Source: an uncultured Candidatus Saccharibacteria bacterium
GTDB lineage: Bacteria; Patescibacteriota; Minisyncoccia; Sungbacterales; HO2-52-23
DNA: 64,000 nt
Direction of reading: 5' to 3'
NCBI GenBank assembly: GCA_964501445.1
Contig: CAZCSJ010000001.1
Location: 7,248 to 71,247, forward strand
The notes under the pieces were generated by a model. It was not told the DNA's origin, searched no databases, and saw nothing but the letters and a program-made list of their open reading frames with translations. The position numbers and the translations under genes were made by a program. Positions 7,773-55,425 of this stretch are shown one piece after another. The stretch's first letter is position 1. Each line of letters opens with the position of its first letter.

Positions 7773-7876
7773 CGCGATGCCAATATACGAATGCATACTA
7801 ATTATACTAATATAATATATGGTGAGCGTAGTCGAACCATTCGTATCATTGGTATAATTCGTATATTCGCATCGTA
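7773..7876 (-). repeat. Family-A intergenic TIR repeat, copy 1 (prfB stop to ftsE start)
   Basis: CGCGATGC(C/T)AATATACGAATGCATAC...ATTCGTATCATTGGTATAATTCGTATATTCGCATCG. Shared with 30238-30325, 42453-42552, 45255-45383 and 54034-54122. Confidence 0.9.
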
Positions 7877-30237: not shown

Positions 30238-30325
30238 CGCGATGCTAATATACGAATGCATACTAATCATACTAATACTTCCTATCCATTCGTATCATTA
30301 GTATTATTCGTATATTCGCATCGTA
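30238..30325 (-). repeat. Family-A intergenic TIR repeat, copy 2 (gatC stop to gatA start)
   Basis: GCGATGCTAATATACGAATGCATAC...CATTCGTATCATTAGTATTATTCGTATATTCGCATCG. Confidence 0.9.
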
Positions 30326-42452: not shown

Positions 42453-42552
42453 TCGCGATGCTAATATACTAATGCATACCAATTATACGAATACCGTATC
42501 ATTTGTATCATTGGCATAATTCGTATATTCGCATCGTATTATATTGGCATCG
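42453..42552 (-). repeat. Family-A intergenic TIR repeat, copy 3 (upstream of pilB)
   Basis: CGCGATGCTAATATACTAATGCATACC...ATTTGTATCATTGGCATAATTCGTATATTCGCATCG. Confidence 0.9.
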
Positions 42553-45254: not shown

Positions 45255-45383
45255 GCGCGATACGAATTACCGCGATGCTAATATACGAATGCTCCGCCAG
45301 CTGGCGGACTAATTATACGAATATATATGGTGAGCGCAGTCGAACCATTCGTATCATTAGTATAATTCGCATATTCGCATCGG
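45255..45383. repeat. Family-A repeat, copy 4, in the divergent pilM/comF spacer, with a nested family-D palindrome
   Basis: CGCGATGCTAATATACGAATG-[CTCCGCCAGCTGGCGGAC]-TAATTATACG...CATTCGTATCATTAGTATAATTCGCATATTCGCATCG. Confidence 0.9.
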
Positions 45384-48741: not shown

Positions 48742-49656
48742 CTACGAAAGCGATTGGTGGAGGATTTTTGCGGCAGGAGAACGCCGAAGCTTTTCCAGTG
48801 CATTGGCCTCAATCTGGCGTACGCGCTCGCGGGCTATCCCAAATATGTTCCCTACTTCTCTAAGAGAAAGCCCCTGTTCCCCTCCGATGCCGAAACGCAG
48901 CCGTACCACTTGGGCGTGGCGTTCAGGGAGAGTGTTTTTCAGGAGCGCATCCACTCTTTGCGCAAAATCGCGAGCGGCGATTTGTTCATCGAGCGGTGTC
49001 TGGCCGTCCGGGATGTTTGCGCCAAGCCGATCCGGCTCTTGCGTGGGTCGTTTTCCTTCTTCGTTGACAGCTTCGTCAAGCGAACGAAGGGGTTTGGCCA
49101 CCACAAGTTCCCTCATTTGAAAAATAATTTTTGGGGGGAGGCCTATTTCTCGAGCGATCTCCGCGTCAGTCGGATCTCTCCCGAGTTCCACAGAGAGGCG
49201 GCGAGTCGCGTATTTGATGCGCGAACGCCGGTCGTGGATATGAACGGGAATACGTATGGTCCTCCCGTAGTCCGCATTCGCGCGGCTCACTGCCTGCCGA
49301 ATCCACCATGTCGCGTACGTTGAAAATTTAAACCCCTTGCGGTAGTCAAACTTGTCAACTGCCCGGAGAAGGCCGACGTTTCCTTCCTGAATTAAATCCA
49401 GGAAGGTGAGGTTTGACGACCCGTCCAGATGATTTTTGACAATGGAAACCACAAGGCGGAGATTTGCCAGATATAGTTTCTCCCGCGCCTTTGCATCCCC
49501 CTTTTCCATCCGCCTGCCAAGCTCCTGTTCCTCCTCTTTGCTCAAGAGCGGGATTTTCCCGATTTTATAGGCGTAGAGACGGAGGGAACTTTCCAGAATC
49601 TCGCTCTCCTTATTTCCTTTCCCATTCTCTCCATCTCCATCGTGATATCTTTCCAT
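48742..49656 (-). CDS. RNA polymerase sigma-70 family factor (RpoD/SigA-like, lacking region 1.1)
   Basis: 304 aa. Region 2 [35 protein letters not shown] and a region 4 HTH. Canonical SD AAGGAGG lies 8 nt upstream of the ATG. Confidence 0.92.
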
Positions 49657-49782
49657 TCATGTATCCTCCTTATTTCCAAGGTACTGGGTACGATTCTCCA
49701 GAGCGCACGCTCTAGATTTTGCACATAGCGTAACACCCCATGCATGAAATACAAGTGGCGCAGCCGTGGTATAATCCATCGT

Positions 49783-53413: not shown

Positions 53414-54031
53414 TTATTTCCCATTCGTTTTTCGCTTGATGATTTCATCAATGATGCCGTACTTTTTTGCGTCCTCGGCGGTCATGTACTTGTCGCGCTC
53501 GGTGTCGTCATGCACTTGCTCCAGCGTTCTGCCGCTGTGTTTTGCGAGGATTTGGTTGAGTCGTTCTTTGAGTTGTAAGATATGCTTTGCAGAAATTTCA
53601 ATCTCCGTTGCCTGCCCCTCAATGCCGCCTGCCATCACTTGGTGGATCATCACCTCCGCGTTCTGGAGCGCGAAGCGTTTGCCTTTTGCTCCTGCGGCAA
53701 GCAGCAACGCCGCGCCCGATGCCGCCATGCCGACACAAATGGTTGAGACATCGGGCTTCACATACTGCATGGTGTCGTAGATCGCCAAAGTCGCCGGAAC
53801 CGAACCGCCCGGGGAATTGACATAGAGCTTGATGTCTTTTTTTTCATCCTCCGATTCAAGGAAAAGGAGCTGGGCAATAATGGCGTTTGCCACCGGGTCC
53901 ACGATCGGCCCGCCAAGGAAAATAATCCGCTCTTTTAAGAGCCGCGAGTAGATGTCGTATGCCCGCTCGCCAAACTGCGATTTTTCAATGACGGTCGGAA
54001 TGAGGTATTGGTTGTAGGTTTCGTTATTCAT
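53414..54031 (-). CDS. clpP: ATP-dependent Clp protease proteolytic subunit
   Basis: 205 aa. [14 protein letters not shown] (catalytic Ser), IHQ (His), and DTERD. Confidence 0.97.
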
Positions 54032-54033
54032 GT

Positions 54034-54122
54034 ATCGCGATGCTAATATACTAATGCATACTAATTATACTAATACTTCCTATCCATTCGTATCATTGGT
54101 ATAATTCGTATATTCGCATCGA
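54034..54122 (-). repeat. Family-A intergenic TIR repeat, copy 5 (tig stop to clpP start)
   Basis: TCGCGATGCTAATATACTAATGCATAC...CATTCGTATCATTGGTATAATTCGTATATTCGCATCG. Confidence 0.9.
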
Positions 54123-54123
54123 T

Positions 54124-55425
54124 TTAGAGTTGTTCAAGAAACTCAAACACTTTCTCGTTTGTCAACACGTCTTTAGTATATGCGCGGAGCGCCTCGGGGT
54201 CAAAATCCTTTTTGGCGTTTTCCGCAGAGCGGTAGCGCGCAAGGATTTCGTTTGCCCGCGTCTCTATCTCCTGGGCGGCGGGCTCAATTTTCTCAACCCC
54301 GCCTATTTCGTGGAGTACGAGCGCGATCCGCACGCGTTTCTGGGCGTCTTTCTCCCAGTCGGTTTTGAGGTCTTCCGGCGTTTTCTTTATGTGCGCGAGA
54401 TACTCCTCCCACTTCATCCCCATATCCCCAATGCTCGCGCGGAGCTCGTCTGTCATCTTTTCAATCTCCCGATCAATAAGGATCCTGGGCACCTCCATGG
54501 CGGAAGCGTCGGCAATTGCCTCAAGGGTCAAAGCGCGAATCCGCTGGATTTCTTTTTGTTCTTTTTCCTGCGCGATCCCCTCGGCAACGTTTTTTTTCAA
54601 CGCCGCAACCGAGTCAAAATTCCCGAGGCCTTTTGCGAATTCATCGGTCATTTCAGGCATAGACCGCTCCTGCACCAGATTCATCTTTACGGTGAAGTCA
54701 AGCGATTTCTCCGCATATCCCTTGTCGTGCCAGTCCTTGGGGGCTTGGAGCGAAAATGATTTCTCTTCTCCCGCCTTCATGCCCTCAATCGCATCTTCAA
54801 AACCCGGGAGAAAACGGCCCTTGCCAAGAATAAAAAGGTGGTTTCTGGACTCGCCACCTTCAATTTTGACCCCTCCGTGGCGCGTGTCAAAATCAATGGT
54901 AACCGCGTCGCCCGGAGCCGCGGCGCGGTTGACCGTCACAAGGACTGAGCGCGACTCGCGGATCCACTCAAGGGTTTTTTCCGTTTCCTCATCGCTCACC
55001 GAAACCGCCTGTTTTCCTTTGCCGAGGCGCCGCGCAATCGCTTTGTAGTCAGGCAGTGTTACCTTTGGGAAAAGCGCTGTCTTCACTTTGAATTCAAGGT
55101 CGCTTCCGGGTGCGAGCTTTGTTATGGCGATTTCCGGACGTCCGATCGGCGGGGTTTTGGAAAGCTCACCCGACACAAGTTCCTCCATGAGTTTCGGGTA
55201 GGCCGCGCGTACTGCGAGCTCGGCGCCGCGCTCATAGAGCGCGAATTCGCCCACGCGGTCTTTTACGACGTCGTAGGGCGCTTTGCCCTTGCGAAATCCT
55301 TCAATTACCGTTTCTTCGGAGATCACAATCGCCGCGCGCTTCACGTGCGGTTCAAATTCGGCGTGAGGGACGATAACAGTAATCTCCGCTTCCGAGTGCG
55401 GGAGGAGCGTTACGGAATGATTCAT
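54124..55425 (-). CDS. tig: Trigger factor
   Basis: 433 aa. N-terminal ribosome-binding GFRKGKAP, a central FKBP-like domain and a C-terminal helical domain. Upstream of clpP. Confidence 0.93.
   Translation of the reverse strand: MNHSVTLLPHSEAEITVIVPHAEFEPHVKRAAIVISEETVIEGFRKGKAPYDVVKDRVGEFALYERGAELAVRAAYPKLMEELVSGELSKTPPIGRPEIAITKLAPGSDLEFKVKTALFPKVTLPDYKAIARRLGKGKQAVSVSDEETEKTLEWIRESRSVLVTVNRAAAPGDAVTIDFDTRHGGVKIEGGESRNHLFILGKGRFLPGFEDAIEGMKAGEEKSFSLQAPKDWHDKGYAEKSLDFTVKMNLVQERSMPEMTDEFAKGLGNFDSVAALKKNVAEGIAQEKEQKEIQRIRALTLEAIADASAMEVPRILIDREIEKMTDELRASIGDMGMKWEEYLAHIKKTPEDLKTDWEKDAQKRVRIALVLHEIGGVEKIEPAAQEIETRANEILARYRSAENAKKDFDPEALRAYTKDVLTNEKVFEFLEQL

Follow-up and report, generated by a model that had tools for sequence, protein, structure and literature searches.

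The junction between tig and clpP, on the minus strand of a 64,000-nucleotide stretch of DNA (the window, C1:7248-71247 of the 715-kb, 48-contig assembly G000), holds a short repeat with inverted ends that belongs to a family we call family A. The element is wedged into the gap that separates one gene's stop codon from the start codon of the following gene, and its parts, in window coordinates and in the order in which they are read on the gene strand, are as follows.

54124-54126, minus strand: TAA stop codon of tig, 2 nt before the focal element
54036-54121, minus strand: copy 5 of family A, the focal copy, with tig upstream and clpP downstream (nhmmer 90.5 bits); the gene strand reads 5'-CGATGCGAATATACGAAT...ATTAGTATATTAGCATCG-CG-3'
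54085-54121, minus strand: G-arm (5' arm on the gene strand), CGATGC-G-AATATAC-G-AAT-T-ATAC-C-AAT-G-ATAC-G-AAT
54077-54084, minus strand: loop or variable centre, the site of the nuclease gene in full-length copies
54036-54076, minus strand: T/C-arm (3' arm on the gene strand); the plus strand reads CGCGATGCTAATATACTAATGCATACTAATTATACTAATAC, and an ATG is retained in AATGCATAC
54029-54031, minus strand: ATG start codon of clpP, 6 nt beyond the GCATCG of the focal copy

The same order recurs throughout the family: an upstream stop codon, 0-5 nt (mostly ...TAATA), the G-arm, a variable centre, the second arm, CG, 1-9 nt and an ATG. Reverse-complementing the T/C-arm, CGATGC-Y-AATATAC-K-AAT-GC-ATAC-T-AAT-T-ATAC-K-AAT, gives the second arm. 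Both arms run to about 40 bp and are made of AAT/ATAC blocks at a 9-10-bp period, with single positions between the blocks that differ, and fail to complement each other, systematically between the G-arm and the T/C-arm, so the element is a long palindrome with regular mismatches whose two ends can be told apart. A first-pass annotation of this DNA had described the ends as inverted repeats, and the motif is indeed present at both; the 18-bp stem that it drew from them is too short, as the whole element forms one imperfect palindrome with a predicted stem of about 35 bp. Either strand folds about equally well, with predicted energies between -22 and -36 kcal/mol and Z-scores of -2.7 to -8.2 (for the focal copy, -22.5 kcal/mol for the gene strand against -24.5 for its complement), and the median pairwise identity among copies is 79%.

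Scanning the window for the 18-nt end motif CGATGC[G/T/C]AATATAC[G/T]AAT with up to 3 mismatches returned ten occurrences in five inward-facing pairs, against 0.12 expected from dinucleotide-preserving shuffles, in agreement with the five copies reported earlier. Their core coordinates (CGATGC...GCATCG) are 7775-7874, 30240-30323, 42456-42536, 45273-45382 and 54038-54121. Pfam matches support the earlier naming of the downstream genes as an ftsE-like ABC ATPase, gatA, pilB, pilM and clpP, and all five copies do share one polarity relative to the minus-strand genes; the genes flanking the copies lie on the minus strand throughout, with comFC (plus strand) as the sole exception. The statement that each copy starts at an upstream stop codon applies to most sites but not to copy 4, which separates the divergently transcribed genes pilM and comFC, and the spans given for copies 3 and 4 were too wide, taking in leftovers of older copies at 42537-42552 and 45255-45272. 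These older-arm leftovers suggest repeated hits at one place. The other four copies and their associated features are listed here.

7773-7874, minus strand: copy 1, prfB upstream and the ftsE-like ABC ATPase gene downstream; stop 2 nt before, ATG 4 nt after
within 7773-7874, minus strand: centre of copy 1, with the extra module GGTTCGACTACGCTCACCAT...
30238-30323, minus strand: copy 2, gatC upstream and gatA downstream; stop 2 nt before, ATG 8 nt after
42454-42536, minus strand: copy 3, an open reading frame (ORF) of 98 aa upstream and pilB downstream
42537-42552, minus strand: solo arm fragment beside copy 3, gene strand CGATGCCAATATAATA, a relic of an earlier copy
45271-45382, minus strand: copy 4, in the divergent spacer between pilM (minus) and comFC (plus)
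45294-45307, no strand assigned: nested 14-bp palindrome inside copy 4, CCGCCAGCTGGCGG
45255-45270, minus strand: degenerate relic of an older arm between copy 4 and the pilM start, gene strand ATTCGTATCGCG

Two longer elements in the assembly, C2:51400-51844 (445 bp) and C14:6278-6725 (448 bp), have family-A ends, with an ORF of about 130 aa inside each. These ORFs match Pfam PF13366 (PDDEXK_3) with 71 and 70 bits (cut-off 22) and NCBIfam TIGR04256 (GxxExxY) with 66.9 bits (cut-off 35), and they are the sole genes of either family in the assembly. The frame opens at an ATG inside the T/C-arm, the one in AATGCATAC, and closes at a TAA inside the G-arm (GGTATAATTCG). The full-length form spans about 420-500 bp, with a predicted GxxExxY nuclease of 125-135 aa (PDDEXK_3, PD-(D/E)XK) as its only gene. 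Since the ends are common to both, the five copies in the window are gene-less versions of this nuclease cassette. Over the whole of G000, gene-less copies outnumber those with the gene by about 12:1.

The catalytic residues of a PD-(D/E)XK enzyme, here E38, D70, E80 and K82, are invariant in 31 aligned homologues, and 30 of these 31 proteins retain the N-terminus that the arm encodes, MHTN(Y/D)TN (MHTNYTN in G000). An AlphaFold2 model of the nuclease (mean predicted local distance difference test score 85.7) leaves the first eight residues disordered, and as the N-terminus is conserved although it appears disordered, a constraint at the DNA level is more likely than one at the protein level. 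The best fold matches of the model, to Cas4 (SSO0001, Pcal_0546), lambda-type exonuclease and tRNA-splicing endonucleases, are weak (E ~1e-3, template-modelling score 0.47), and a sequence search of the PDB with the nuclease gave no match; the protein is a minimal PD-(D/E)XK nuclease without a close solved relative. In a survey of the PD-(D/E)XK superfamily, PDDEXK_3 is listed with unknown function (PMC3424549).

The cassette is widespread in the ultra-small bacteria of the Candidate Phyla Radiation (CPR), to which the organism of G000 belongs as a Parcubacteria-type member, one relative (G004) being labelled Candidatus Sungiibacteriota. PDDEXK_3 genes were found in 18 of 40 related genomes, and most of the 30 loci fetched from them have flanking inverted repeats of periodic short units, the whole elements measuring about 415-530 bp. 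The arm unit varies with the nuclease subfamily, ATACGAAT, TACGAAAT, ACGCGGAC and TAACGCCAAT being among those seen. A second survey, made with a family-A nuclease profile on one genome per species, yielded 80 loci from Portnoy-, Azam-, Lipton-, Staskawicz-, Doudna-, Levyi- and Sungiibacteria, Paceibacterota and other lineages. Flanking inverted repeats (score >=12) accompany 67 of 79 nuclease genes and none of 73 controls taken 800 nt away. At the 55 loci with a CGAT[GA]C...AATATAC.AAT core, a stop triplet lies within 6 nt upstream in 50 and an ATG within 9 nt downstream in 41, with both present in 40, triplets being counted without regard to reading frame; the nuclease ORF is co-directional with its neighbours in 40 of 50 flank comparisons. 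In the related genomes G017 and G019, gene-less hairpins match the arms of the same genome's nuclease cassette.

These data bear on whether the nuclease belongs to the element at all, as the hairpin repeats could be primary and moved by another host or phage function, with GxxExxY genes as passengers that repeatedly settled in the loops. Such a scheme would account for the excess of gene-less copies in G000, for the presence of family-A hairpins in G002, G011, G022, G033 and G039, which have no family-A nuclease gene, and for the observation that the loops accept other inserts. However, a passenger would not be expected to have its start and stop codons inside the arms, nor its arm-encoded N-terminus kept in all but one homologue; moreover, arms flank most of the surveyed nuclease genes and change their unit with the nuclease subfamily, and both nuclease genes of G000 lie within family-A arms. 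We regard the passenger scheme as highly improbable.

Some GxxExxY cassettes are found in other settings. Those with GC-rich arms (ACGCGGAC units) occur in frame inside a RecG helicase, between the DEAD and Helicase_C domains, and likewise inside the GTPase domain of an EF-G/LepA-like factor, giving open frames of 500-900 aa with an embedded nuclease domain (L009:1246-3342, L028:532-3222, L013:1237-2793 and L020:1231-2817 in related genomes). Separately, an identical family-A-type nuclease is present in 129 blocks of a public contig collection (L107-L116 among them), and wherever it was read its neighbours are the same pair of intein-containing genes (DUF2229 and BcrAD_BadFG); a single organism with a wide distribution seems a better account of this than many separate insertions.

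Comparison of orthologous junctions indicates that family A arrived by insertion. Family-A DNA is present in 11 of 41 related genomes, and even in different families of the order it stays about 80% identical. In relatives the tig-clpP junction is mostly a spacer of 2-15 nt (G006: TAAATATG) or an ATGA overlap; in G004 it holds a different hairpin family, TGATGC...GCATCA (L041), and further genomes hold other repeats. Between gatC and gatA, 15 of 29 relatives have at most 27 nt or an overlap (TAATG, ATGA), and at least five have other hairpin families there, whose arms in G017 and G019 match those of the same genome's nuclease cassette. The comparison of occupied and empty sites suggested in the first-pass annotation finds both junctions often empty in relatives, and the insertion is the derived state at tig-clpP and gatC-gatA. 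We also looked for a strain with an empty site, and the sole other contig with an identical ClpP breaks within the element. An unrelated repeat starting ...TTTTCGGTTCCCTCGG... fills the tig-clpP spacer in G010, G001 and G022 (L043, L060, L061).

The gene-less copies have, in addition, signs of a history of their own. The nested 14-bp palindrome of copy 4 recurs, identical, at one internal position in six dispersed family-A copies, and subsets of copies have central modules in common, so the gene-less copies have multiplied as such. Family A is, in sum, a derived, patchy and multiplied insertion in stop-start junctions, and a gene-less version of the nuclease cassette whose ends it shares. The patchiness also speaks to the idea of a non-mobile, conserved cis-regulatory RNA or protein operator common to a housekeeping regulon, for which the strong sequence conservation, the position directly upstream of start codons and the 9-10-bp periodic blocks, reminiscent of protein-binding sites, could be cited. 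Yet the downstream genes are functionally unrelated, orthologous junctions are empty or hold other families, gene-carrying versions exist, no Rfam family matches and the element folds on both strands, so that the probability of an operator is close to negligible.

The distribution over the whole assembly was obtained by a profile search with a family-A model, set against crude gene calls made for the present analysis from ORFs and codon usage. It returned 37 loci, about 24 complete copies plus fragments; the complete gene-less copies are 64-143 bp long and without an ORF, and all G000 copies lie between or beside protein-coding genes. Typically, the upstream stop is 1-4 nt before the G-arm and the first in-frame downstream start 2-11 nt after the other arm. 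The G-arm comes first at 20 of the 21 classifiable co-directional junctions (two-sided binomial p ~2e-5), the single reversed copy (C6:5024) being shortened, and the remaining complete copies comprise three in divergent spacers (C1 52520, C4 1423 and C7 974) and one that is ambiguous. A genome-wide census had been named in the first-pass annotation as a check on its five same-facing copies, and on this scale, too, placement and orientation are non-random. By a rough histogram estimate, co-directional spacers of 20 nt or less sum to well under 1 kb, and the genome contains about 100 times as much non-coding DNA; as most copies lie in these short junctions, their placement reflects a genuine preference, either of insertion or of survival.

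Polarity is less uniform across genomes. Assigned from internal arm asymmetry, in some cases with small score margins, it is the same as in G000 in G004 (6/6), G002, G039, G030 and G022, and opposite in G033 (5/5), G011 (2/2), G009 and G036. A polarity that is constant within a genome but not between genomes is not what a promoter, or any other host function with a fixed direction, predicts; a strand-specific insertion process or lineage-specific selection fits the pattern better. An attempt to separate replication strand from gene strand by GC skew in G000 gave no answer, as the contigs are short and the coding strand imposes a skew of its own.

A portable promoter or short-leader cassette, in which internal TATAAT/TATATT boxes would start transcription a few bases before the start codon, was among the roles first proposed for family A. 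The hexamers are present 11-29 nt from the starts, as had been reported, and the three copies that fill most of a divergent spacer could conceivably contain a -10-only or outward-facing promoter. Their promoter meaning does not hold up, as some of the TATAAT boxes exist because they are parts of the AAT/ATAC arm blocks, and one is part of the stop codon of the nuclease ORF. A scan for terminators and for sigma-70-type -35/-10 pairs with 16-18-nt spacing gave no consistent site; promoter matches fell in copy 3 only, two in number, with none that is consistent in copies 1, 2, 4 and 5; the total for the region, 13, is no excess over the 9.7 +/- 2.8 of shuffled sequences. Also against a cassette of this kind, most copies are operon-internal, 2 nt after a stop codon, a near-palindrome would fire in both directions, and the polarity is opposite in G033, G011, G009 and G036.

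The promoter proposal had also leaned on ribosome binding, in that the genes behind the copies have no Shine-Dalgarno (SD) sequence while a sigma-factor gene has AAGGAGG. Both observations are correct, the gene called at 48742-49656 having a perfect AAGGAGG 6 nt before its ATG (49657-49680). They do not set the family-A genes apart, as lack of an SD is the genome-wide norm: an SD-like 4-mer occurs at -16 to -7 in 57 of 570 called genes (10%), and upstream regions in G000 are A/T-rich and G-poor, with no G enrichment before starts. The SD contrast was thus excluded as a special feature of these genes, and a promoter or leader function is, in our judgement, very unlikely.

A selected intercistronic RNA hairpin deserves more weight. 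Repetitive extragenic palindromic (REP) and Correia elements have been described as stabilizing or uncoupling mRNAs via a hairpin, and family A, whatever its origin, could likewise be kept since RNase III cuts its stem or the stem blocks exonucleases, uncoupling or stabilizing the neighbouring mRNAs. The long predicted stem, the operon-internal position, with a stop 1-4 nt ahead of the element and a start 2-11 nt behind it, and the uniform polarity within G000 are all in keeping with such a role. G000 also has an RNase III gene, rnc (C24:2199-2924, minus strand), and one family-A copy (C24:2898-2970) lies directly upstream of it. With a stem of this length and rnc present, processing of the hairpin by RNase III is plausible in itself. 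Selection for the hairpin, in contrast, sits badly with a junction occupancy that is not conserved among relatives, with variable arm positions that have no compensatory changes, with a polarity that differs between genomes and with the copies in divergent spacers, and since the stem is equally stable on both strands, the hairpin leaves polarity unexplained. The search of Rfam proposed in the first-pass annotation matched no RNA family to family A: at the gathering cut-off the covariance models found four tRNAs only in the window, and at permissive thresholds the best hit to the focal copy (E = 6.6) is noise. We consider a selected RNA hairpin unlikely, the most credible of the rival accounts though it is.

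Taken together, these results make it probable that family A is the gene-less form, resembling a miniature inverted-repeat transposable element (MITE), of a hairpin-ended GxxExxY-nuclease element wedged between stop and start codons. We propose that the element lands in, or survives only in, a very short stop-to-start spacer, and that the nuclease may recognize its own arms, either in duplex form or as a hairpin (extruded or single-stranded), thereby mobilizing full-length and gene-less copies alike. In the operon transcript, the insert would fold into the stem of about 35 bp, whose base would bring the upstream stop and the downstream start together again, and such rejoining could make the insertion near-neutral in a genome reliant on coupling and without use of SD sequences. 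The stem would probably also be a substrate of the host RNase III. Uniform polarity in G000 would then be a property of the insertion process, or of selection in that lineage, and not a sign of directional host function.

Several observations weigh against this account. The 20/21 polarity is left without an explanation by it. Relative to the flanking genes, the gene-less G000 copies lie antisense to the lost ORF, and the two full-length copies lie sense. No consistent direct repeat marking a target-site duplication was found around 24 gene-less and 55 full-length copies, whether the ends were set at the CGATGC core, with CG added, or with the ATA/TAT or GTAT/ATAC extension, and the flanks are AT-rich. 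The fold matches of the nuclease are generic to PD-(D/E)XK enzymes, nucleases of the Cas4/RecB type being the nearest. For the three copies in divergent spacers, a promoter has to lie within the element or next to it. Finally, in the alignment of copies, variable arm positions have no compensatory changes toward pairing and paired blocks never vary, which leaves the alignment silent on selection for the stem.

A broader proposal is more tentative, and we put it forward as a possibility with somewhat less than even prospects: GxxExxY nucleases would be the mobilizing enzymes of an undescribed class of hairpin-ended elements that leave no detectable target duplication, colonize stop-start junctions in CPR operons and are tolerated via a stem that loops the insert out, with lineage-specific polarity reflecting strand-specific insertion, either single-stranded or coupled to replication. 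We found no published description of a GxxExxY cassette, its inverted repeats or its mobility in the literature on GxxExxY/PDDEXK_3, CPR MITEs and CPR rRNA insertions, although coverage was incomplete and this is absence of evidence only.

By analogy, the element appears to work like three known pairings, a MITE with its parent, a REPIN (a REP doublet) with its REP-associated tyrosine transposase (RAYT), and a 23S rRNA intervening sequence (IVS) with its small ORF, yet it misses a defining feature of each. As a MITE, family A is short (below ~300 bp), ORF-less, present in many copies and bounded by terminal inverted repeats, and longer copies with the same ends exist at 445 and 448 bp. The gene of these is a PDDEXK_3 nuclease, whose mobilizing role is inferred, in place of the DDE transposase of typical MITE parents. 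The MITE alternative of the first-pass annotation accordingly stands, on account of these features and of the ends in common with gene-carrying copies; its qualifier "domesticated" goes beyond what the data show.

Among short repeats, the Correia or nemis elements of Neisseria offer a close parallel, being ORF-less, multi-copy elements of ~100-150 bp with hairpin-forming terminal inverted repeats that lie beside or between genes and are co-transcribed with them. Cleavage by RNase III and promoter-like boxes have both been reported for them, the same ideas as were first advanced for the family described here. Family A is similar to them in size, lack of ORF, copy number, hairpin ends and genic placement; to our knowledge, there is no sequence relation between the two. 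In contrast to Correia elements, the arms of family A are about 40 bp of periodic 9-10-bp blocks with CGATGC... ends, and its placement is precise, from stop codon to start codon. With regard to the TA duplication of Correia elements, a TA lies on the G-arm side of family A in 17 of 24 copies and not directly adjacent on the other side.

The likeness to REPINs and RAYTs lies in the many short, palindromic, non-autonomous copies alongside a single-copy gene flanked by the same repeats, and in the way repeat and enzyme diverge together between genomes; the enzyme, however, is a PD-(D/E)XK nuclease and not an HUH Y1 transposase. A direct link to a RAYT was examined and rejected: the sole Y1_Tnp gene of the assembly (PF01797, 40 bits; C19:8546-9280) is flanked on both sides by GTACCGATCTTAGATCGGTAC, and its contig has no family-A matches. 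This RAYT-like gene and its GTACCGATCTTAGATCGGTAC repeats form a separate REPIN-like system, unrelated to family A.

The IVS of the 23S rRNA of Coxiella burnetii is a 428-nt insert with an S23p ORF (PMC4990558). In such inserts RNase III removes the stem, ORF-less versions exist, and a sporadic distribution suggests horizontal transfer (PMC4990558; general description in PMC11270868). The full-length nuclease element is similarly a selfish insert of ~430-450 nt with one small ORF and a terminal inverted-repeat stem that would restore the continuity of the host RNA, the stem being a prediction in our case. The two differ in location, as family A sits at protein-gene junctions and not in helix 25 or 45 of 23S rRNA, and in the encoded protein, which matches PF13366 and not the four-helix S23p family (PF05635).

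If our interpretation is correct, it would explain the conspicuous "structured intergenic spacers" of CPR genomes, which may otherwise be over-read as promoters, leaders or riboswitches. It would also offer the large GxxExxY/PDDEXK_3 family a concrete job, with the flanking arms as its natural substrate. A position between stop and start codon, in genomes without SD use, would amount to a natural experiment on translational coupling that tolerates an insert of 90-450 nt, and the likeness to rRNA intervening sequences points to a shared logic of hairpin-ended selfish inserts in essential transcripts.

Other repeats accompany family A in these genomes. The perfect palindrome CCGCCAGCTGGCGG is itself highly repeated, with at least 55 copies (up to 2 mismatches) in the 715 kb, many of them in coding regions; in the window it occurs at 45294-45307 and at about 8915, 12535, 32427, 35397, 45034 and 56993. 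A sister family of about 100 bp, made of CTAC-type blocks and ending in TGATGC...GCATCA, is present in G000 in about six copies, at C3:14761-14863, C7:31598-31700, C8:16131-16233, C3:43643-43734, C12:10179-10284 and C20:3706-3808. In G009, a family-A element lies within a larger inverted-repeat unit, CGCTCCTCGC...GCGAGGAGCG, which is itself repeated (L077:3550-3646, L077:4237-4333 and L079:1539-1653) and is a composite of two nested repeat families.

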